A stretch of 64,000 nt of DNA. Source: an uncultured delta proteobacterium. Its GTDB lineage: Bacteria; Myxococcota_A; Polyangia; Polyangiales; Polyangiaceae. The position numbers and the translations under genes were made by a program. Where the stretch lies: NCBI GenBank assembly GCA_963782055.1, contig CAWAIF010000003.1, positions 5,312,001 to 5,376,000 of the forward strand, in the 5' to 3' direction. Below are positions 11,785 to 64,000 of the stretch, in pieces. Below the pieces are notes generated by a model that saw nothing but the letters and a program-made list of their open reading frames with translations, had not been told where the DNA came from and made no database searches. Positions within the stretch are counted from its first letter, which is position 1, and the number at the start of each line of letters is the position of its first letter.

Positions 11785-12098
11785 GGCCCGCGTACGAGGC
11801 TCTGTGCGGCGCGGTCGACGATGCGCTGTGTGCCTGCTCTGCGCGACCGCCGCTGCATGAGTCTCCGGCTGGCAGGCGCCGGGCTGCACTGTGGCTCCTC
11901 GCGCGCCGCCTCGACGCGCTGCGTGCCGCTCATCGGATGCTCGGCATCTACGCGCGCGCCGGAAACGTCGGGGCGGCACTGCGCGCTCTGCGTGTGCTCG
12001 GCCAGCGCCTCCGCCGTGCCCTCCGTGCTGCCGAGCGCGTCCGGGAGCTGCACGCTCCGGCCCGCCCCTGGACACATGCGGATCAGGAGGCGGCATGA
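11781..12098 (+). CDS. Hypothetical protein
   Basis: Coupled to both neighbours (GTGA/ATGA overlaps). Confidence 0.45.
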   Translation: MRPAYEALCGAVDDALCACSARPPLHESPAGRRRAALWLLARRLDALRAAHRMLGIYARAGNVGAALRALRVLGQRLRRALRAAERVRELHAPARPWTHADQEAA

Positions 12099-13249
12099 GC
12101 ACCGACCACCTCGCACGAGAGAGCCATGCCGAGTCCGACATCCGCAACGCGGAGCGTCTCGTCGAGCTGCGCGGCGATGACCTGCGCTACATCCCGGAGC
12201 AGAAGCGGTGGCTCGTATGGGACGGGCGGCGATGGCGGACCGGTGCCACGGAGCAGGCCTATGCCCTCGCGGTGGACACCGCGCGGGTCTTGCTGGCGTC
12301 AGCAAAGCAGGAGCTGGTGAGGCGGACGGAGGATCACGCGGTCGCGTCCGCGCACGGCAGCAACGACGCAAGGAAGAACATCAAGGAGGCGGAGCGCACG
12401 CTTCGCTGGGCGGCGAGGAGCCAGCTAGCGCCCCGCCTGCACGCGATGCTGGACGTAGCCAGGTCCCACGCCCACCTCATCGTCGCTCCGACCAATCTCG
12501 ACAGCGACCCGTTCCTGCTCAACGTTCTGAACGGCACGGTGGACCTGCGCACCGGCAGTCTGCTGCCCCATCGGCGGGAGGAGCTCCTCACCAAGCTCGC
12601 GCCGGTGCCGTACGATCCGGACGCCACGTGCCCCCGCTTCGACGCGTTCGTTCGACGCGTCCAGAACGGCGACGTCGAACGCATCGCCTTCCTGCGCCAG
12701 TTCCTCGGCTACTGCCTTTCGGGCGATGTTCGCGAGCACATCCTCACGTTCTGGTTCGGTCCCGGCGGCAATGGGAAGAGCGTGCTGGCGAAGCTGATCA
12801 TGCACGCGATGGGCGACTACGCCGTGAAGGCGGCGCCGGACCTGCTCTTCCGTGGCCGGACCGAGCGGCACCCGACCGAGCTCGCGGACCTCCACGGAGC
12901 GCGACTGGTCGTGTGCAACGAGACGCAACGTCTCAAGCAGTGGGATGAGGCGACGGTCAAGGACATCACCGGCGGCGACACGATCAAGGCGAGGCGCATG
13001 CGGGAGGACTGGTGGTCATACGATCCTACCTTCAAGCTGGCGGTCCTCGGCAATCACAAGCCCCACTTCATCGGGCCTCCGGACGGCGGGATCCAACGGC
13101 GCCTTCGACTCATCCCGTTCGACGTGACGATCCCGCAGGACGAGATCGACCGCGAGCTGGACAGGAAGCTCTGGGCCGAGGCAGGCGGCGTGCTCGCCTG
13201 GCTCGTGCGCGGCTGCCTCGAGTGGCAGCAGCACGGTCTCCGGGAACCG

Positions 13250-14694
13250 CATGCCCGATCTCTTAAGCACCGATCGCCCCAAGTTTGAGGGCGATTCGTT
13301 TCCTGGAGCGTGAAGGTTGTCGTTCGCGTGCCAGAGCGACGAGTGCCGCGCCCACGGTGGTCACGACGGCAGTCCACGCGGCGGTGCTCAGGGAGACGAG
13401 GGCGTCGACCAGGTCCCGCGCGTAGGCGCGCACGACGTGCAACGTCGCCAGGGGGCGCAGTTGCTCGAGAGGGACGTCGCGCGCGAGTGCAGCCTGGATC
13501 CTGACCGAGCGCACGAGCGCGTGGGCGAGCATCGCGCCGTAGGTGAGCGCCTTGATCGCGTGGGGATCGGCGGTGAAGGAGCGGCCGAGGTCGGCGGTCT
13601 GCTTCAGCTCGCGAAAGAGCAGCTCGATCAGCCAGCGGAGTCGGTAGGTCTGGATGATCTGCCGTGGCGAGAGCACGCTGCGCGGCACGGTGGTCAGGTA
13701 CCAGCGGATGACGGTCGACTTGTGCGCGAGTCCCACGAGCCGCAATGCGACGGTGTCCTTGCCCTTGCCCCACGTCACGTCGAGGTCGAAGATCGTCCCG
13801 CGCTTGCGCGACACGCTCTGCAGGTAGTAGCCAAGCGACCAGTTGTGGAGCGGGGTGTGGCCGTTCTCCGAGATGTGCGCGGTCACGCGTACCTTCGCCG
13901 TGGTCTTGAGGCGCATCAGCACGTGCGCGCCGGCAGCCTTCGCCTGCGTGAACAGAGCGCGCTCGAAAAAGCCGAGGTCGAAGAGGTAGAGCACCCCGCG
14001 CGTGAAGCTCGGGACCAGCTTCCGCCACAGCGGCGTCTCCGACGCGGTCTCCGCGTCGGAGACGCCGTGCTCGAGCAGGCCGGTCTTGATGCTGTAGCCC
14101 ATCACCCACTTGGTGCCGGCCTTGCCCTTGGTGCATCCCGGCAGCAGCTCGCGCCCGCGCGGTGGCACGCGCTGCCCCGTACCGTCGTAGACCCGCACGT
14201 CCTCGAAGCGGGCGAGCGGCCCGCTCAGCTCCAGGCCCGCCGCCTTCGTCACTGACGCCACGAGGTGCTCGAGCGCCGCGCGGAAGAACGCCGCCGCCGA
14301 CTCCTGCTTGAACCGCTTCTGGAACGGGCACGGGCGCATGAAGCCGAAGCGCCTCACGAAGATCGCCCGCAGCGACTCGAACGACAGCGTCTGGCCCGCG
14401 AGGAACCCCTCGACGACCGTGAGCACCAGGCGGAACGCGGTGGCGCGCCGCTGCCGCGGGTTGTAGCCGGTGCGGCCCCGAAGCTCGTCGATGACCGCCG
14501 GCGTGAAGGTCCGCTGCAGCTGCTCCTCCACCGCGCTCGCCTCTTCGCTCGGGTCTGGACGGCTGCTCGTGGCTCGGGTAGCTCTCGTCGTCATCGGGCG
14601 TCCTCTCCTTGTTGGTGTCGCAACCGAACAACGAGAAAGGCGCCCGATTTATTTCCATCATTCCGCCACGTTATGTCCAAAGGATCTGGCCATG
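13250..14694 (-). mobile_element. IS4-family insertion sequence, 10-bp TSD CCGGGAACCG (13240-13249, 14695-14704)
   Basis: Exact TSD; imperfect ends CATGCCCGATC / GATCTGGCCATG. Confidence 0.9.
13263..14594 (-). CDS. IS4-family DDE transposase
   Basis: YDGT, FDLGF, YRLRWLIELLFRELK (YREK motif). Confidence 0.9.
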   Translation of the reverse strand: MTTRATRATSSRPDPSEEASAVEEQLQRTFTPAVIDELRGRTGYNPRQRRATAFRLVLTVVEGFLAGQTLSFESLRAIFVRRFGFMRPCPFQKRFKQESAAAFFRAALEHLVASVTKAAGLELSGPLARFEDVRVYDGTGQRVPPRGRELLPGCTKGKAGTKWVMGYSIKTGLLEHGVSDAETASETPLWRKLVPSFTRGVLYLFDLGFFERALFTQAKAAGAHVLMRLKTTAKVRVTAHISENGHTPLHNWSLGYYLQSVSRKRGTIFDLDVTWGKGKDTVALRLVGLAHKSTVIRWYLTTVPRSVLSPRQIIQTYRLRWLIELLFRELKQTADLGRSFTADPHAIKALTYGAMLAHALVRSVRIQAALARDVPLEQLRPLATLHVVRAYARDLVDALVSLSTAAWTAVVTTVGAALVALARERQPSRSRKRIALKLGAIGA

Positions 14695-15572: not shown

Positions 15573-16721
15573 GTGTCGCCGCCCACGATGGAGTTCATCA
15601 TCATGGGCAAGAGAAACGACGGCGGCGTCCGCACCGAGACTCGGCGCGGCGTCCACACCCTGGTCATTGACTTTACCTTTCGTGATTCGGACGGTCGCGC
15701 GCAGCGCTACCGGCGCGATGCGACCGTCCAGCAACGCGGCTCCGCGCTCGCGGAGGCCGCGCGGTTGCGACGGCTGGCCGTTGCGAACGGCACGCTCGAC
15801 ATCGCTCCGCAGGTGCAGACCTTTGCGGCGTTCGTCGCGACCGACTTCCGTCCGCTGGCCATGGCGAGGTACTCGCCGGCCACACGAGAGCGCTACGAGC
15901 GCGTTCTCACAGCGCCCGGCGGCCTGATCGAGCTTCTCGGCTCGGTGCGCATCGACGCCATCGGCGCTCGCGAGCTGAGGCTGGTCGAGGCAGAGCACCA
16001 TCGGCGTGGCACGAGCCCACGTCAGGCGCTCATCCTGGCGCACGGCATCATCCGGGTCGCCGTCGAGCACGGCAAGCTCACGCAGATGCCGGTGCTGCCC
16101 AAGCATCCGAAGGCACCGCGCAAGCTCCCTGCGTGCCCGAGTGTTGGCGATGTCCGTCGCCTTCTGGAGTCGGCGACCGGATGGCTTCGCGTTGCCGTCG
16201 CCGTCGCGGCACTTGGCGGGCTGCGCAACGGAGAGGCGCGGGCGCTGCGTGCCGGCGACGTCGACATCCAGACGGGCTTGCTCTGCGTGAGGCGGGCCTA
16301 CTCGCACCACGAGATCCGCAGCCCGAAGAGCAAGCTGGAGCGCGTGATCCCGATGGGCGACCTCCTCCGCGGCATCCTCGCGGAGGCGGTGCGCGGCAAG
16401 CGCCCGACGGACACGCTGGTGGTGACGGAGGACGGGCGCACGCCGAGCAGGCAAGCGCTGTACAAGTCCTTCACGTCGCTCTGCCGTCGCGCGGGCCTCG
16501 CGAGGACGTGGTCCTTCCACTCGCTGCGCCACGCCTTCGGCACGCACGCGCTCCGCGCCGGCGCCAACGTCGAGGCGGTGCGCGAGCTCCTCGGCCACCG
16601 CGACCTCGCGACCACGAGCGGTTACCTGCACGCTCTCGCTGCGGACAAACCGTCCGCTACCGAGGCGCTCAACAGGCAACTGGTCGGAAACGCCACCGAG
16701 CCGAATCACGTAACCGCTTAG
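15573..16721 (+). CDS. Tyrosine recombinase/integrase (true start perhaps 15588 or 15603)
   Basis: GLRNGEARAL (R), PKS (K), HSLRH, LLGH, GY catalytic residues; ends next to tRNA-derived att. Confidence 0.93.
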   Translation: MSPPTMEFIIMGKRNDGGVRTETRRGVHTLVIDFTFRDSDGRAQRYRRDATVQQRGSALAEAARLRRLAVANGTLDIAPQVQTFAAFVATDFRPLAMARYSPATRERYERVLTAPGGLIELLGSVRIDAIGARELRLVEAEHHRRGTSPRQALILAHGIIRVAVEHGKLTQMPVLPKHPKAPRKLPACPSVGDVRRLLESATGWLRVAVAVAALGGLRNGEARALRAGDVDIQTGLLCVRRAYSHHEIRSPKSKLERVIPMGDLLRGILAEAVRGKRPTDTLVVTEDGRTPSRQALYKSFTSLCRRAGLARTWSFHSLRHAFGTHALRAGANVEAVRELLGHRDLATTSGYLHALAADKPSATEALNRQLVGNATEPNHVTA

Positions 16722-16891: not shown

Positions 16892-16959
16892 GGAGCGGGA
16901 GAAGGGATTCGAACCCTCGACGTCCACCTTGGCAAGAGGGCTCCCCTGCGTTTTCCCGC
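16892..16959 (-). pseudogene. tRNA-Gly(GCC) remnant / att site: intact 3' half, degenerate 5' half
   Basis: Minus strand reads GCGGGAAAACGCAGGGGAGCCCT-CTTGCCAAG-GTGGACGTC-GAGGGTTCGAATCCCTT-CTCCCGCTCC; D arm and anticodon stem broken. Confidence 0.8.
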
Positions 16960-40555: not shown

Positions 40556-42061
40556 TCAGCTCTCCACCTCGTACTTCTGGAGCCAGTTCTTGAGGGTCTG
40601 GTAGCTCGGCAGGCCGACGAGAGACGCGGCTTTGGTCATGTTGTCCGGCGCCTCCTTCACGGCGCGCGAGAGGTAGTGGCGGGCGACATCTCCGAGCAGG
40701 TCCGCGAGCTTGAAGCCGTCGCCGAGCGGGCGGCCAAGCACCTCGTCGTCCGCGCCGCCTGGGACGGTGCGCAGGGCATCGCGAGCCTCGGCCTCGTCGA
40801 CGATGGGCCCCTTCGACCAGATGAAGGCGCGGCGCAGCGACGCGTCCAGCTCCCGGACGTTGCCCGGCCAGCGGTACCGGAGAAGAAGATTCCTCGCCCC
40901 GACAGAAAGCTTCTTCTGCACCGCGCCAGGCCGCTTGCCGAGCTCGGTGTTGAGCTTGTCGAGGAGGCGGTCGATGAGGAAGCCCACGTCCCCTTCGCGC
41001 GCGCGGAGCGGCGGGACCTGCAGCGGCAGGATGCTCAGGCGGTAGTAGAGGTCCTCGCGGAAGCGACCTGCACCCACTTCCTCGAGGAGGTTGCGGTTGG
41101 TCGCGGCGATGACGCGGACGTTCACCGAGATGTCCATCTTGCCGCCCACCTGGCGCACCTTCTTCTCCTGCAGCGCGCGGAGCAGCTTCACTTGATGCTG
41201 CGGCGCGAGCTCGCCGACCTCGTCCAGGAAGAGCGTGCCGCCGTCCGCCTGCTGGAAGTAGCCGGTGTGGGGCGCGGTGGCGCCGGTGAAGGAGCCCTTG
41301 GTGTGGCCGAAGAACTGCGACTCGAAGAGCTCACTGGGGATGGCGCCGCAGTTCACCTCGGTGAAGGGGCCGGCCCTGCGCGGGCTCTCCGCGTGTATCG
41401 CCGCGGCGAGCAGCTGCTTGCCGGTGCCCGACTCTCCCTCGATGAGGATGGCCTCCGAGAACGGCGCGGCCTGGCGGGCGCGCCGTACCAGGCCCTTCAT
41501 CACCTCGCTCCGGTGCAGGATGTCGCCGAACCTCGGCTCCTCCGGGCGCTGCTCCTCGGCGAGGCGGGCGAGGTCCTCGCTCGTCTGCTGCACCGCCGCC
41601 GGGATGAACTCCGCCGCCAGCTCGAAGGGCACCTCCACGGTGGCGACCCCCTTCTGCCTGGACGACTCGATGAGCTCCGCCTCGAAGCGGGTCTTGGCGA
41701 CGATGATCCAGATGGCCGCCATCGCCGGCGTGCCGGGGCTCAGGTGGAAGGTGAGCCGGGTCTTCTGCCCGTACTTCGCGAGCGTCCACGCGACCGCCGC
41801 GGTGACCGCGCCGTAGATGTCCCTGTAGTGGGTGGGAGAAGAGAGCGGGTACTTGCGGACGACCACGCTCGCCTTGGTCTTCTTCTTCACCCAGCGCTCG
41901 AAGCCGCCGAGCTTGTCCGCCGGCATGTCGTTCAGGAGCACGACGTGGTCGAAGGTCCGCGCGGCGAGGGCCTGCCCGATGGGCCCGAGCTCGCCGGGCG
42001 CGTCGCTCTTGGCCGCGTTGACGTCCGCCGTTCCTATCCACGCCAGAAGAACGCCCGCCAT
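40556..42061 (-). CDS. Sigma54-dependent activator with RtcR/CARF-like N-terminal sensor domain
   Basis: LAWIG..D, FHLSPGTPAM (CARF-like); GESGTGK, GSFTGA, LFLDEVGE, RFREDLYYRL, WPGNVREL, C-terminal HTH. Confidence 0.88.
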   Translation of the reverse strand: MAGVLLAWIGTADVNAAKSDAPGELGPIGQALAARTFDHVVLLNDMPADKLGGFERWVKKKTKASVVVRKYPLSSPTHYRDIYGAVTAAVAWTLAKYGQKTRLTFHLSPGTPAMAAIWIIVAKTRFEAELIESSRQKGVATVEVPFELAAEFIPAAVQQTSEDLARLAEEQRPEEPRFGDILHRSEVMKGLVRRARQAAPFSEAILIEGESGTGKQLLAAAIHAESPRRAGPFTEVNCGAIPSELFESQFFGHTKGSFTGATAPHTGYFQQADGGTLFLDEVGELAPQHQVKLLRALQEKKVRQVGGKMDISVNVRVIAATNRNLLEEVGAGRFREDLYYRLSILPLQVPPLRAREGDVGFLIDRLLDKLNTELGKRPGAVQKKLSVGARNLLLRYRWPGNVRELDASLRRAFIWSKGPIVDEAEARDALRTVPGGADDEVLGRPLGDGFKLADLLGDVARHYLSRAVKEAPDNMTKAASLVGLPSYQTLKNWLQKYEVES

Positions 42062-45080: not shown

Positions 45081-46596
45081 GTGTCTGCTTAGCGGTGTCG
45101 CACACTGTGGGTCCATTCTTCGTTCCTGATGCGAGAAGTTCTTTCCATGGGACCTGATCGGGAGCATCCCGGATCACGTGACGCCCGAGCAGCGGATCCA
45201 GGAGCTGGAGCAGGAGAACGCCGCGCTTCGCGAAGAGCTGGCGAAGCTGCGCAAGGAGATCGAGGAGTGGAAGCGCGGGTTCCGGGAGCGCGGGAAGCGG
45301 CGGACGTCGCGTTCCGAGGGTCGGCGGGCGGCCTCGGGCAAGCCACGCGGCCGCAAGGCGGGGCATGTCGGATCGCGGCCCGCCGCACCGGCCCACGTCG
45401 ACGACGAAGTCGTGCACGAGATGCCGGCGACGTGCAGCTGTGGCGGGGCAGTCGTGGCGACGGGCGAGACGGACAGCACAGTCGTCACCGACATCCCAGT
45501 GGTGCAGCCGCGGCAGACGCATCACGTGGCGCACGTCGGCAGCTGCGAGGTGTGCCACAAGCGCGTGGTCGCGAAGCTGCCGGGCGCGCCGGCGGCGGGC
45601 AAGAGCGTCGCCGCGGTGTCGTTCGGCCCCAACGTGCAGGCGATGGCGCTGGACCTGCGCTTCGAGCGGGACATGCCGCTGGGCAAGATCCGTGCGTTCC
45701 TCGGACAGTGGCTCGGCATCTCGATCACGACGGGCGGCCTGGCGCAGATGTTCGACCGATTGCGACGCCGCTCGGCGCCGAGCTACGACGAGCTGGTCGA
45801 CGCGGTGCGCGCATCGCCCGTGGCGGGCCTCGACGAGAGCGGCCATCGACAGGACGGCGTGCCGGGTTGGATGTGGCTGATGCGCACCGACCGCGTCTCG
45901 GTCTTCCGCGCCGAGCTGTCGCGCGGCGCGTGGGTCGCCGAGTCGATGCTCGGCGCGGGCTTCAAAGGCGTCCTGTGCACCGACTTCTACGGCGTGTACA
46001 CGAGTCACGACGGTTGGACCCACGCCTACTGCGGTGCGCACACCATCCGCGAGGCCAAGAAGATCGCCGAGCTCACCCCGTGCGCCGCGACCGAGGAGTT
46101 CCGCGACCGACTCATCGGCTTCTACGTCGCGGGCAAGCAGGCCGCGGCGAGCGGCGATCCCGAGCAGCGCCGAGGCGCGCGCATCCGCCTCGGCCATCTC
46201 ATCAGCAGCACCAACTTCGTGGAGTTCCCGGACATCGTCCGGCTGCAGGAGCGCCTCGACGAGCACAAGGTGGGGGTGACGCTCTTCATCGACCGCCCCG
46301 ACGTCCCGGCCACGAACAACGCGACCGAACGCGACATCCGCGCCCACGGGCGGCACCGCGCGATGACCGGCGGCACGCGCTCGGCCGCCGGCAGCGCCAC
46401 CCTGGCGCACTGGATGAGCATCACGCAGACGCGGCGCAAGTGCCGGCTCCCGCTTCGGGGCTTCGTCATCGGGCTGTACGAAAGTCACCTCCACGGCAAG
46501 CCGCCTCCGTCTGTCTTTGCCCACTAGCCGGCGAGTCCTCCGACGGTCGACGTCACGCCCGGGCCGCGGGCCGTCTTCCGGCCGCTAAGCAGAGAC
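45081..46596 (+). mobile_element. Compact single-ORF IS66-family element, 8-bp TSD CCGCGTCT (45073-45080, 46597-46604)
   Basis: IR GTGTCTGCTTAGCGG / CCGCTAAGCAGAGAC; exact TSD. Confidence 0.92.
45178..46527 (+). CDS. IS66-family transposase
   Basis: Leucine zipper, CSCGG/CEVC, DESG, TDFYGVY, CGAH..RE, TNNATERDIR. Confidence 0.92.
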   Translation: MTPEQRIQELEQENAALREELAKLRKEIEEWKRGFRERGKRRTSRSEGRRAASGKPRGRKAGHVGSRPAAPAHVDDEVVHEMPATCSCGGAVVATGETDSTVVTDIPVVQPRQTHHVAHVGSCEVCHKRVVAKLPGAPAAGKSVAAVSFGPNVQAMALDLRFERDMPLGKIRAFLGQWLGISITTGGLAQMFDRLRRRSAPSYDELVDAVRASPVAGLDESGHRQDGVPGWMWLMRTDRVSVFRAELSRGAWVAESMLGAGFKGVLCTDFYGVYTSHDGWTHAYCGAHTIREAKKIAELTPCAATEEFRDRLIGFYVAGKQAAASGDPEQRRGARIRLGHLISSTNFVEFPDIVRLQERLDEHKVGVTLFIDRPDVPATNNATERDIRAHGRHRAMTGGTRSAAGSATLAHWMSITQTRRKCRLPLRGFVIGLYESHLHGKPPPSVFAH

Positions 46597-60526: not shown

Positions 60527-60738
60527 TGCGCAAGTATCCTAGTCCTCCTGCTGCGACTGAAAAAGCGACGCCAGTCCGCCGCACGAGGTCGGCGCGCCAC
60601 TCCGTCGGCACGTCGCCGGCTGCGGGCCAATGGAGGTTCCGCTGGCCCGCCCCTCCGCAAGTGCTAATGAGGAGCCGCCCCGCGTCGACGGTAATCGACC
60701 CGGGCGGGCTCTCAAGGGAGAGCGCCGGACCCAGGTAC

Positions 60739-62862
60739 ATGAGCAAGACCACGAAACTTCGCGCACGTGCGCTGCGCCTGCGGCCAGAGGTCGCGCGCTT
60801 GCGCGCCGCGGGCGGGCTCACTCCCCAGGTCCTGGTCGACGGCGCGTCCCTCGGGGTGTGGTCTGCCCGCGTCGGGGCCGACGTCCAGGCGGTTCTCGAG
60901 GTGCTTCGGGAGGCTGCTGACGTGGGCCGCCGTCAGCTCGTCCTCGTCGTCTCCGCACGCCTCGCGCCGGCAAGCTGGCCCGCACCGCACGCGCAAGTGC
61001 TGTCAGCTCCGGGTATCGCCGGCCTGCTTCGGGGGCACGCGTTTGGAGATGTAGACCTGCCTGCTCTTCCCAGCGTGGTCGTCGCGGGCGTGGAGCACGA
61101 CCGGCAGCTGCTGGACTGCCTGGAGGCCGGCGCGACCAGCGTTTTGGACATCGCCACCGGTCGCCTATGGACCGGCAGCCAGCGCGAGCACTACGACGCC
61201 GACTTCGCTGCCGCCGCGGGCAACGCCGCCGTCGACCAGGCACCCGCGGCCAGCAGGGCGCTCGCGGCCATGGTGACGGCTTCACCCGCAGCGCTGCGAA
61301 CTGGTCGCGTGCACGTAGTGTCCGCATTGCACCGTGAGGAGGGCCACGTGGTCCTGGACAGCGTCACTGTCGACGACGGCGCACGGCATCGCGCCGACGG
61401 CCACGTCGCAGGGCTACGACTCCTGCGCGGTGTTCTCGCCCGCGGTGCGTTGCCCGTGATGACGTCCTCGATGGACGTGCTCGACGCGCTCTACGACGCC
61501 GGAGAGCCGCTGCCTTTCCGTGTGGAGGACCCGGCACTCGCGTGCGCCGTGCTGGACCCCGACCTCCGCTCCCTGCCTCCCGGCGTCGGCTCGGCGTGGC
61601 ACGCGGTACTCTCTGGCCGGCGAAGTGAGCGCCCAGTCAAGCCGGCCGCGGACCTGCTGCTCGATGAACTGCCCACGCTTCACGACGAGCTCCGCGATGC
61701 GCTGCGAGCGGCCTCGCTCCTGCCGCTCTACGAGGAGGACGTCTGCGCGACGGCGCCGCTCTTCGCCGCGCTCGAGTCGGAAGGGTTTCGCGTCGACAAG
61801 GCGGGGCTGAGCACAGACCTCGCTGCCGTCGAAGCGGAGATGGTCCTGGCCCGCGCCGTCGTCCTGAAGGGCGTAGGGGACCACGCACTCCGCAACGCGG
61901 ACCTCGTCGGCGGGTCGAGGGTCCATATCGGTCAGCTCATCCGGATGGCCGACAGTTCGCTCCCCAGTGCATGGCGCAACGAAGACCAGCTGCTCGAGCG
62001 CTACGCGCTCTACCGCAATCCACGCGCGATGGCCGTCCTCCGACTCCGCGCGCTGGATGCGGTCTACTCGTGGATGAAGAAGCTGGAGGGGCTCGACCGG
62101 CTCCGCAGCACGCTCGACCCTTCCGCCACCGGCCGCTGGTACCCTCATGGAGAGGCGCTCTTCACCATCTCCAAGCGGGAGTCCGAGGCCATGAGACTCC
62201 GCGCGCACCTGGTTCCCGAGCCGGGCCACGTGCTTGTCGCAGGTGACTTCGCCGCGTTCGAGCCGCGCTTGCTCGCCCACCAGTCCGGCGACACCACGCT
62301 CGTTGCCGGCTGCCAGCCCGGCCGCGACATCTACACCCATCTGATGCCCCTGCTCGGCGTCACCGACCGCGACATCGCCAAGCAGGCCCTCCTCGCCTTC
62401 ATGTATGGGCGGTCCGCTCGGTCGTTCGCCGTGTCGCTGCCCCTCCCACTGCCGGAAGGGCATGCCGTGTTCAACAAGCTCGAGAGCCAGTTGACTGGCT
62501 CGCTCGCGTTCCGCAAATCGGTGCAAGAGAGCGACACCACGTCGGCCCGGTCGCTCCTCGGCTGGCGACGCCTGCGGAGCACCCAATCGCCCGCCAAGTT
62601 CGCGCGGCAGGCGTTCAACCTGCGGATGCAGGGGTCGGCCGCAGACCTTCTTCGCAAACTGCTGCGGGACCTGCATGCCGCGCTGCCCGCCTCGGTACGC
62701 GTCGTGCACCAGGAGTTCGACGCCGTGATTCTGACATGCCCGGCTCCGCAGGCGGTCGCCGTCGAGGCGTTGCTCAAGAACACGATGGAGAATGTCGCGA
62801 AGCTCACGGTGCCGCTCGTTGCCAAGACCAAGCATGGAGCTACTCTCGCCGCCGTATCGTGA
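60739..62862 (+). CDS. Highly divergent family A DNA polymerase (707 aa) with degenerate exonuclease-like N-terminal domains
   Basis: ATGRW, motif A GDFAAFEPRLLAH.SGD, motif B RDIAK..LAFMYG, AFNLRMQGSAAD, motif C variant HQEFDAV. Confidence 0.85.
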   Translation: MSKTTKLRARALRLRPEVARLRAAGGLTPQVLVDGASLGVWSARVGADVQAVLEVLREAADVGRRQLVLVVSARLAPASWPAPHAQVLSAPGIAGLLRGHAFGDVDLPALPSVVVAGVEHDRQLLDCLEAGATSVLDIATGRLWTGSQREHYDADFAAAAGNAAVDQAPAASRALAAMVTASPAALRTGRVHVVSALHREEGHVVLDSVTVDDGARHRADGHVAGLRLLRGVLARGALPVMTSSMDVLDALYDAGEPLPFRVEDPALACAVLDPDLRSLPPGVGSAWHAVLSGRRSERPVKPAADLLLDELPTLHDELRDALRAASLLPLYEEDVCATAPLFAALESEGFRVDKAGLSTDLAAVEAEMVLARAVVLKGVGDHALRNADLVGGSRVHIGQLIRMADSSLPSAWRNEDQLLERYALYRNPRAMAVLRLRALDAVYSWMKKLEGLDRLRSTLDPSATGRWYPHGEALFTISKRESEAMRLRAHLVPEPGHVLVAGDFAAFEPRLLAHQSGDTTLVAGCQPGRDIYTHLMPLLGVTDRDIAKQALLAFMYGRSARSFAVSLPLPLPEGHAVFNKLESQLTGSLAFRKSVQESDTTSARSLLGWRRLRSTQSPAKFARQAFNLRMQGSAADLLRKLLRDLHAALPASVRVVHQEFDAVILTCPAPQAVAVEALLKNTMENVAKLTVPLVAKTKHGATLAAVS

Positions 62863-64000
62863 GGTTGTACACCCCGTGGAGCAACTGCCAGCGCTGTGAG
62901 CGCGCGGAGTATCGATGGGGCATCTTCGCGCCGGCGACGACGAGGCCCAAGGTTCTGGTTCTAACCGCGGGCGCCTCGCGGGCGAGCCAGTGCATCGGGA
63001 AGCCCGACCCGCTCCCGGCGCTCATCGCGCGAGGCATCGCCTTCCTCTACCGGCTCCGGCCCGCGGACATCCATGTCGACACGCTCCTCGCGTGCGGGGC
63101 CTCCGGCGATGCTCACGCTCACGACGCGGCCGCGTGCGCGCAGCGGATCGAGGACCAGGCAGTACTTGGTGCCTGGCCGGTTGTTCTTGTTGTTCTGGTC
63201 GGTGAACGTGCCGCCAGGCTCGCTCGGTACGCCGGCTTGCTCACCACGTCAGGCTTTCGGCTCGCCGGTCAGCCTCGGCCGTTCGTCGTCGTGCACGAGC
63301 CCTGGGAGGTGGGGGTCGACGCTCCGTGGTCCGCCCTGGGCACTCGCCGCAGGCTACCCGAGTCGCTCCAGCTGTACCCTTCGGCGGAGGGCGTGCTTCT
63401 GGACGTGGTTGCCGGGCGCTGCGACGGACACGCTTGGCGTCCCATCGGCGGCGAGTGGCGCCGCTCCTATGAGCGACCGTCGGCCGAGCTCGTGGCGGCT
63501 CACGTCGGAGGGTACGGCTGGCTGTCTCCGTATCGCCCGGTCGGCGCCTGGCCCTACGTCGTCATCGACGTGGACCTGCACAACGCCATCCAGTACGCGC
63601 GCTACGACAGCGTGCTGAGGAAGCTCGACAAGCTCTTCAAGACGAGCCTGGTCTTCCAGAGCAGCCCCACCGGCGGCGCGCACATCTACGTGCGCCTGCC
63701 GCCCGATACGACGTACGCAGCCGGCGCGGTCTGGCTGACCGAGTTCCTTCTTGTCCACGGTCTACTCTTTGAGGGCACGGCACCCGGGCCGTCTGCGACC
63801 GTGCGTGGCAACGTTGCCACCCGGCTTGTCGATGTGCCGCTACATCCCCCGCGCCTTCCCTTCGGTATTGGCTCTTGGCTGCGCGGATTCCCTGACCCCG
63901 TCAAAGCCGTGGAGAGATTCAAGCGGTGGCTGGCGGCGCAGGACTTCGGCGACTTCGAAGGCGCGCGTAGCGCCGTCGAGGCGAAGCGGAAAGGGAGGGT
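62859..64000 (+). CDS. UDG-like N-terminal domain fused to archaeo-eukaryotic primase (AEP)-like domain; runs off window, absent from ORF track
   Basis: Manual translation from GTG overlapping polymerase stop, no stop to 64000: CQRC, DTLLAC...AAAC, VLVGERAA; VVIDVDLH, SSPTGGAHIYV, PRLPFG. Confidence 0.75.
   Translation, partial: MRLYTPWSNCQRCERAEYRWGIFAPATTRPKVLVLTAGASRASQCIGKPDPLPALIARGIAFLYRLRPADIHVDTLLACGASGDAHAHDAAACAQRIEDQAVLGAWPVVLVVLVGERAARLARYAGLLTTSGFRLAGQPRPFVVVHEPWEVGVDAPWSALGTRRRLPESLQLYPSAEGVLLDVVAGRCDGHAWRPIGGEWRRSYERPSAELVAAHVGGYGWLSPYRPVGAWPYVVIDVDLHNAIQYARYDSVLRKLDKLFKTSLVFQSSPTGGAHIYVRLPPDTTYAAGAVWLTEFLLVHGLLFEGTAPGPSATVRGNVATRLVDVPLHPPRLPFGIGSWLRGFPDPVKAVERFKRWLAAQDFGDFEGARSAVEAKRKGR

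Follow-up and report, generated by a model that had tools for sequence, protein, structure and literature searches.

We analysed a 64,000-nt stretch of DNA (the window) from an uncultured delta proteobacterium of the family Polyangiaceae (assembly GCA_963782055.1, contig CAWAIF010000003.1; G000:C3:5312001-5376000), whose genome comprises 7.6 Mb with 72% G+C. Close to the right end of the window, a gene for a divergent family A DNA polymerase (element PolA) overlaps a gene for a primase with an N-terminal uracil-DNA glycosylase (UDG)-like domain, and the primase gene is followed by two inverted arms that form a candidate origin (Table 1). Both genes and the arms belong to a 58.5-kb island bounded by 44-bp direct repeats of a tRNA-Gly gene, and together they probably constitute a two-protein replicon. 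Positions are those of the window, and positions above 64000 continue along the contig (G000:C3 minus 5312000). A first-pass annotation of the sequence had regarded the two genes as a pipolin-like DNA-synthesis module of a tRNA-integrated, defence-rich element, acting in replication, mutagenic repair or defence.

Table 1. Features of the polA-primase unit, its candidate origin and the island ends.
Feature	Position	Strand	Description
GC-rich hairpin	60675..60707	.	About 30 nt upstream of polA; found in 5/10 loci with upstream DNA
Element PolA, 707 aa	60739..62862	+	ATG start; Pfam DNA_pol_A E=1.4e-29; residues 1-187, N-terminal helix predicted to dock and probable remnant of an eroded 5'-3' exonuclease; then inactive 3'-5' exonuclease fold and intact polymerase domain
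Primase gene, 635 aa	62859-64766	+	GTG start, 4-nt overlap with polA stop; extends past window end
UDG-like domain, aa 1-161	62859..63341	+	Four invariant Cys, no catalytic motifs; predicted PolA docking
AEP catalytic domain, aa 170-376	63366..63986	+	Motifs I-IV conserved
Helical bundle and winged helix, aa 385-635	64011-64766	+	Beyond window
Left arm, candidate origin	64771-64838	.	About 68 bp, directly after primase stop codon
Right arm, candidate origin	64994-65061	.	About 68 bp, inverted relative to left arm
MerR/HTH_17-type gene	72691-73368	+	Helix-turn-helix match under cut-off
Tyrosine integrase	73938-75296	+	Family match over cut-off; PHROG integrase E=1e-26; precedes tRNA-Gly
tRNA-Gly(GCC)	75335-75407	-	3' 44 bp (75335-75378) = attR; 10.6 kb downstream of primase gene
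attL	16893..16936	.	44-bp direct repeat of tRNA-Gly(GCC) 3' end; 100% identical to tRNA end at G000:C3:5387335-5387378

Element PolA retained the catalytic motifs of its family, as the first-pass annotation had reported. Across 20 family members of 24-63% identity, to which all PolA motif counts refer, D503 and E508 of motif A were invariant (20/20 each), R544 and K548 of motif B occurred in 19/20 and Y556 in 17/20, and D661 of motif C was found in all 17 rows covering that column. The unusual HQEFDAV form of motif C is real and represents a subclade variant, as the column before the Asp held F in 9 rows and the canonical H (HDE or HDS) in 8. In the structure model (predicted local distance difference test, pLDDT, 87), residues 185-707 aligned with the E. 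coli Klenow fragment (Z 33.7, root-mean-square deviation (rmsd) 3.1, 497 residues aligned). The Klenow fold together with motifs A, B and C places the protein in family A, and it scored far below the TIGR00593 cut-off for canonical bacterial Pol I. A tree of 35 polymerase domains put 18 element PolAs on one side of a branch supported at 100/98 and 15 Pol I-type proteins, including the distinct Pol I that the host itself encodes, on the other (2 truncated members were left out, two branches were long, and the midpoint root served for drawing only).

Both nuclease regions of element PolA differed from working enzymes. The Exo I strand carried no conserved acidic pair despite the 3'-5' exonuclease fold, and the segment DPALACAVLDP, previously read as a 3'-5' exonuclease motif, turned out to be a structural segment after Exo II and not catalytic. 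The polymerase had thus been rightly called proofreading-deficient, and only the distinctiveness of this trait was overstated, since proofreading is absent in about half of bacterial Pol I (PMC12926913). Residues 1-187 formed an alpha/beta domain with an invariant Asp on its first strand (D34, 20/20), which gave no Atlas match and lay outside the rows of the fold search. With 187 aa against about 300 and no PF02739 or PF01367 match it is not a full FEN-like 5'-3' exonuclease. It is probably a shrunken one, with weak profile support (HHalign, 0.5% for the whole family and 8% with E 0.004 for a longer subgroup).

The overlapping downstream gene encodes the primase, for which motif counts refer to 58 family members, or fewer where rows do not cover a site. 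Its model was of high confidence (pLDDT 93, predicted template modelling score 0.90, 58 sequences). Residues 1-161 adopted a family-4 UDG fold (Z 11.5 to UdgX, rmsd 3.4, 153 aligned; Z 11.4 to the T. maritima UDG), and the four cysteines noted at first sight as having family-4 spacing were invariant wherever covered (C10 45/45, C13 45/45, C79 55/55, C93 56/56). Fold and cysteines agree with family-4 membership, by analogy with which the cysteines form a probable Fe-S site. Catalysis in family-4 UDGs depends on the motifs GE[AG]PG, GxPF and HP[SA]. These catalytic and uracil-binding motifs were absent from nearly all 58 members (GE[AG]PG 0/58, GxPF 1/58, HP[SA] 0/58), while the same script found GE[AG]PG in 12/20 stand-alone family-4 UDG homologues. 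Because they have been lost, a role of the UDG-like domain in uracil repair is unlikely. The catalytic motifs were likewise missing from four family-4 UDG homologues that stand alone in other genomes of the phylum (L054, L056, L059, L063), and proteins of this type are a possible source of the fused domain.

The second domain of the primase belongs to the superfamily of archaeo-eukaryotic primases (AEP) by both fold and motifs. Residues 174-376 matched CAPP Prim-Pol (Z 13.6, rmsd 3.6, 182 aligned), the best matches including CAPP, Prim-PolC and LigD Pol. The DxD and His motifs recognised in the first-pass annotation were conserved (D237 and D239 55/58, H275 56/58), as were the motif III acid (55/58) and R332 of motif IV (55/58). 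The fold comparisons of both proteins that it had recommended thus returned Klenow, family-4 UDG and AEP. Residues 385-500 were helical and residues 502-625 matched winged helices at middling Z scores of 5-7 (PriX, Z 5.2); there was no PriCT or Replicase match in Pfam, and Atlas matches were all under 0.9. A more distant and longer group of proteins (P0105, P0109, P0110, P0115, P0128; 670-860 aa, with longer forms up to 890 aa) shared the AEP and helical region and had an apparently similar Cys-rich N-terminus, two of them with weak AEP-TOTE matches.

Structure prediction pointed to a docking role of the UDG-like domain on PolA. When PolA 15-707 was folded with primase 1-165, the complex scored 0.68, whereas none of 3 controls exceeded 0.00. 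Of solved complexes 116/157, and of mismatched pairs 2/215, attained this mark, counts that are roughly applicable here. At least 68% of contacts were shared between runs, and partner pLDDT was at least 85. The closest predicted contacts joined PolA 19-27 to UDG-like residues 87-95 and 124-126, with further contacts on the exonuclease and polymerase edges. The N-terminal contact residues of PolA were more conserved than their domain average (0.69 against 0.50, a level seen in 0.015% of random draws), and the nine closest contact residues on the UDG side were more conserved than background. The PolA N-terminal contact motif was present in 15/20 element PolAs vs 0/15 Pol I-type proteins, and the partner motif on the UDG side in 40/58 family members vs 0/20 stand-alone family-4 UDG homologues. 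Evidence from the modelled complex and from conservation thus points to protein docking on the PolA N-terminus as the function of this domain.

The two arms downstream of the primase gene form a conserved inverted pair. In ColE2-type plasmids the origin adjoins rep. Here the inner 23 bp of the arms (64816-64838 and 64994-65016) are a perfect inverted repeat, with 173 nt between the core motifs, and each arm has two boxes, the outer rich in T and the inner terminated by TAAA and an A-tract. In the related locus L009, arm offset and gap were the same as here, and 20 arms from 10 loci aligned almost gap-free over about 65 nt, even among loci whose proteins are about 30% identical. A profile trained without the present genome (G000) ranked the two arms 1 and 2 of 14,006,194 positions on its main contig. 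Without the four closest loci the ranks were 3 and 128, and no other convergent pair on the contig reached that threshold. When leave-one-locus-out profiles were applied to each region, the two arms took ranks 1 and 2 at 8/11 loci. A paired 12-mer pattern with a gap of 110-170 nt matched 1/383 genomes, at the G204a site; that gap range excludes the 173-nt gap here and the pattern was partly built from the G204a match, so the result speaks for specificity only. We also considered a miniature inverted-repeat transposable element, which was ruled out because the arm pair is single-copy in the host genome.

A second conserved element, the hairpin upstream of polA, has a 13-pair stem in which 4 pairs are changed on both sides in some row, as expected of compensatory substitution. 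It had no Rfam match and was not flagged by a sigma-70 and terminator scan; it is a candidate regulatory or priming element.

From the genes, motifs, folds, synteny, selection, attachment (att) sites and paired arms observed here, together with the predicted protein contact, we infer that the unit is probably a two-protein replicon. The primase would bind both arms, lay a primer at each and pass synthesis on to a strand-displacing PolA, in a replicon similar to IncQ and ColE2 plasmids and with a polymerase of its own. The unit lies in an att-bounded island, in most cases with a tRNA and a recombinase of the tyrosine or large serine type next to it. After excision, the winged helix and helical bundle of the primase would bind each inverted arm, and the A/T-rich inner arm ends would be opened without a helicase, as in ColE2-type Reps. 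The AEP domain, whose active site is conserved, would then synthesize one primer per strand. In the predicted complex the catalytically dead UDG-like domain grips the N-terminal helix of PolA, so that the primer could be passed directly to the polymerase. PolA, with its polymerase site intact and presumably no working 5'-3' or 3'-5' nuclease, would extend both primers by strand displacement, making leading strands only, comparable to IncQ replication from ssiA and ssiB. In this way the circle would be copied, or forks would be started for the host replisome to take over.

A different function of the same parts would be an accessory one in repair or recombination, filling gaps during recombination of the element or in excision repair, comparable to Prim-PolC or LigD Pol and possibly in an error-prone manner, with the arms serving as operator sites. 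Such a function would suit the similarity of the AEP domain to CAPP, Prim-PolC and LigD Pol, the missing proofreading motif and the presence in the islands of RadC, a Rad52-like annealing protein, a PD-(D/E)XK nuclease or RecA. It is harder to reconcile with the lost UDG catalytic motifs and with a host that already has its own Pol I, and both the winged helix and the convergent sites conserved downstream of the operon are more readily explained by origin recognition; we consider it unlikely. Given the paired inverted sites, the mutagenic-repair and defence functions that the first-pass annotation had offered as alternatives are both weaker than replication.

The replicon reading was further examined in relatives of the two proteins. 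Word-indexed protein searches returned 17 primase relatives and 10 close PolA relatives, and relatives of both carried source names from Sorangium and Polyangium, which makes a myxobacterial host from that group probable. The primase profile had 140 matches among all representatives at 50% identity, 68 of them below 1e-30 and about 45 near full length. Primase genes, full-length or truncated by contig ends, were found in 7/383 genomes of the family (one with three copies), a floor obtained in a stricter first look, and in 0/6 genomes of the same genus. In a sample of the phylum, 64/251 genomes gave a match, of which 2 were full-length, 61 essentially the UDG-like domain alone and 1 a short AEP stretch. 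Three loci came from metagenomes. The distribution of the family is patchy. The primase had no tblastn match in plasmids and phages, and PolA had only 37 distant partial matches in phages. An alignment of the primases found no relative in viral contigs or in the genome-contig collection, a blank that is uninformative because whole-genome searches did return copies.

Synteny of the pair was complete, with a related polA directly upstream of and co-oriented with the primase gene in 11/11 loci with upstream DNA. A site-specific recombinase lay within about 10 kb in 8/9 genome loci (3 tyrosine and 5 large serine recombinases, two of the latter assigned by similarity grouping), and a tRNA gene (Gly, Ser, Glu or Asn) stood beside the recombinase in 7/9. 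The association with either tyrosine or serine recombinases suggests a mobile module that combines with different integrases. In the five serine-recombinase loci (L024, L050, L045, L031, L034) the tRNA is antisense to the recombinase gene and overlaps it at the 3' end. Upstream genes common to several loci encode RadC, RecA, MoxR/VWA or small proteins; related islands L021, L025, L030 and L046 carry VgrG and RHS-repeat genes, extracytoplasmic function sigma factors and an extra recA.

Ratios of nonsynonymous to synonymous substitution (dN/dS) were 0.16-0.41 in 9/9 comparisons; polA and its parts gave 0.22-0.41 and the primase 0.16-0.33, with the lowest values in the UDG-like domain (counted pair by pair, most pairs having a dS close to 1). 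These sequence comparisons indicate that the pair is under purifying selection. They also bear on the possibility that the unit is a relic without present function, either a decayed host polA copy or a prophage remnant, for which the frameshifts in 2/11 loci and the two IS21-type elements, two IS66 elements and one group II intron inserted in the present island could be cited. The element PolAs form their own clade, they are under purifying selection and the host Pol I is separate, so element PolA is not a decaying host copy, an outcome that the first-pass annotation had named as a refutation. Moreover, the about 45 near-full-length primase clusters at 50% identity, and the intact state of both ORFs, arms, integrase and att sites at this locus, make a relic extremely unlikely, and for the family this explanation is largely refuted.

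The replicon sits in an island whose right end lies beyond the window. As the first-pass annotation had anticipated, extending the contig revealed the tRNA-Gly end and, before it, a tyrosine integrase. The helicase sought there was not among the genes conserved beside the pair; a superfamily 2 helicase-like gene occurs in the island 30 kb from the pair. Repeats of 11 bp were found near both att sites (17043; 75234, 75246 and 75267) and may be integrase arm sites, but the 11-mer had 39 copies on the contig. No empty site was readable in 5 congeneric genomes, where the tRNA-Gly was not next to the right-flank gene. One DNA read run shared 7% of words, with coverage mainly over IS66 and the intron.

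Defence and toxin-antitoxin cargo of the island comprised AbiE, a DUF433/PIN pair, type I restriction-modification, a CARF-RtcR regulator and a HigBA-like pair, and other cargo comprised RadC, DUF932, a Rad52-like annealing protein, a PD-(D/E)XK nuclease and a Schlafen domain. The CARF-RtcR/PspF-type sigma-54 activator (40556-42061) lies directly upstream of the type I restriction genes. The two IS66 transposase copies (45178-46527 and L001:6697-8046) have equal length and the same start, and the second adjoins the group II intron. With cargo of this kind, and with a generic match of PolA to PADLOC RTasPolA (E=2e-13, polymerase core only), the pair could be an anti-phage DNA-synthesis system comparable to defence-associated polymerases. 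The primase had no PADLOC match, no effector gene was conserved beside the pair and the pair was near the recombinase end in most loci, which makes this very unlikely. The replication module in a tRNA-integrated island with defence genes, as first proposed, is supported as the probable role of the pair.

Genes for virions (capsid, terminase, portal, tail) were absent (0 among 37 island ORFs against PHROGs and 0 among 37 against Pfam), which speaks against the ordinary prophage that had been named as the other refutation. Pfam scans of the island ORFs detected no conjugation families, and no relaxase was found; these ORFs were called with a home-made codon-score script, and some genes may be missed. 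An element without conjugation or capsid genes among its scanned ORFs would need a helper, and it might move as single-stranded DNA by means of that helper, with the pair making the complementary strand from the arms on entry and with no vegetative replication. One site per strand would permit conversion of either strand, and no helicase is conserved next to the pair. A single site would suffice for such conversion, however, and the winged-helix domain suggests recognition of a double-stranded site; with no relaxase either, we judge this explanation quite unlikely.

Two further regions of the genome adjoin or resemble the island. The tRNA-Gly site also holds a second, tandem island with 24-bp repeat ends (G000:C3:5306005-5328770; from the window start to 16770), which encodes a separate tyrosine integrase (15588-16721); its D5-type primase/helicase gene (12095-13288) abuts a DDE_Tnp_1 transposase. 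At L007 (G000:C3:114156-117356), near a tRNA-Ser, a short PolA fragment stands beside copies of the PD-(D/E)XK and HigBA-like genes of the island and is probably a remnant of another island.

Several points weigh against the two-protein replicon. Replication, an excised circle, a rise in copy number and enzyme activity all enter by inference, and a non-proofreading polymerase without a helicase is a poor sole replicase for 58 kb. Transfer machinery was absent among the scanned island ORFs, which leaves the spread of the element unexplained. The arm set was picked by eye before profiling; arms were weak or unclear in 3/11 loci (G388, G044, G256), and by plain local alignment only 4/11 loci exceeded the 99th percentile of genomic windows. 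In the complex, which was modelled with only the UDG-like domain of the primase, neither the whole UDG-side interface (34 residues) nor the exonuclease/polymerase side of PolA was conserved above background (equalled by 24% and 58% of random draws). Residues buried for structural reasons may account for part of the conservation that was observed, and the score may in part echo phage fusions of UDG and PolA, which place the UDG between the exonuclease and polymerase domains. The frameshifts affect polA in G388 and the primase gene in G204c, and no recombinase was called within 16 kb of the G204a locus. Finally, two G204 loci carry a second polymerase gene (L023:10435-14319 and L019:11440-14565, both on the minus strand), 2 kb upstream of and divergent from the pair. 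It encodes 1041-1294 aa with an ATPase-like (P-loop-like) N-terminal region without a family match, a 3'-5' exonuclease and a PolA domain, whose motifs look partly eroded and which groups apart from the element PolAs in the tree; this divergent fusion could be the real replicase of those two loci.

Among known systems, the proposed replicon would work most like a ColE2 or IncQ replicon with its own polymerase. ColE2-type Reps unwind their own origin and prime for Pol I, and the order AEP, helical bundle and helix-turn-helix without a helicase is that of ColE2, RepE-RepS and PrimHYQ Reps (PMC5862659; PMC4538821). The present primase would likewise combine an AEP, a helical PriCT-type bundle and a helix-turn-helix in one Rep with no helicase, and a family A polymerase (host Pol I in ColE2) would extend the primer; the domain order fits, but the PriCT/Replicase match in Pfam is missing and Atlas values are below 0.9. 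The present unit differs in that its primase carries an additional UDG-like domain at the N-terminus, its polymerase is element-encoded and predicted to contact that primase, the setting is a large integrative island, and the sites form a convergent pair, whereas ColE2 initiation is unidirectional. In IncQ plasmid RSF1010, two inverted sites on opposite strands, ssiA and ssiB, permit leading-strand-only replication, and the AEP primase RepB' also has a helix bundle (PMC8567376). The inverted pair is present here as well, and priming from it would follow by analogy. RSF1010 requires the RepA helicase, the RepC initiator and host Pol III (PMC8567376), whereas neither RepA nor RepC genes were found among the conserved neighbours of the pair, and the arms of about 68 bp with two boxes are unlike the RSF1010 ssi sites.

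Elements with their own polymerase show other partial likenesses. The CcPol-MP-Cch2 system of SCC elements and the PolA-SSB/TV-Pol systems share the integrative lifestyle, the recombinase and a Pol I-derived, partner-bound family A polymerase in a replication operon, but there PolA is truncated and is itself the primase, the partner is an OB-fold protein and a helicase is in the operon (PMC10061031; PMC7581432). The element PolA studied here has a full Klenow fold and a separate AEP, and its neighbour is the UDG-AEP gene in 11/11 loci. Pipolins are likewise tRNA-integrated, have no virion genes, carry restriction-modification and toxin-antitoxin cargo and an own polymerase, and in some cases UDG genes, but they are defined by a primer-independent, proofreading PolB without a primase (PMC5695915). 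The pipolin comparison drawn in the first-pass annotation therefore holds for lifestyle, with tRNA integration by a tyrosine integrase and no virion genes, and fails for mechanism, which here combines family A with AEP; by analogy, ColE2 Rep, IncQ RepB' and the SCC CcPol system would be closer mechanistic relatives. In N4-like and SPO1/SP15-like phages, a family-4 UDG domain (inactive in N4-like phages) lies against the exonuclease and polymerase domains of PolA and has been proposed as a processivity module (PMC10201439; PMC13697223). There the UDG is fused to PolA, at its N-terminus in N4-like phages, whereas here it is encoded after the polA stop, fused to the primase, and would act in trans.

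No description of a UDG-like/AEP fusion beside PolA was found in the literature searched, mostly open-access main texts without supplements, and the text of PMC5862659 contains no occurrence of 'uracil'; these proteins might figure among the members tabulated in PMC5862659 and PMC12926913 (group 'PolA1-like'). We tentatively suggest that the loci may represent a distinct class of self-synthesising integrative elements, with a minimal, helicase-free two-protein replisome, an origin-binding primase whose repurposed Fe-S UDG domain is a trans-acting PolA clamp and a symmetric two-site origin used in leading-strand-only mode, which would be the split, in-trans counterpart of the phage UDG-PolA fusions.

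Few integrative elements bring their own DNA synthesis, and such an element would join them as one that uses a family A polymerase primed by an AEP. It also gives a testable role to catalytically dead UDG domains near polymerases, for which a processivity aid has only been speculated (PMC10201439). For myxobacteria, the two genes and the 290-bp site define a candidate replicon of 4.4 kb. Few replicating vectors are known for these bacteria. Coupled to its primase and provided with a cognate origin, a strand-displacing polymerase without proofreading could, in addition, serve isothermal amplification or orthogonal replication.

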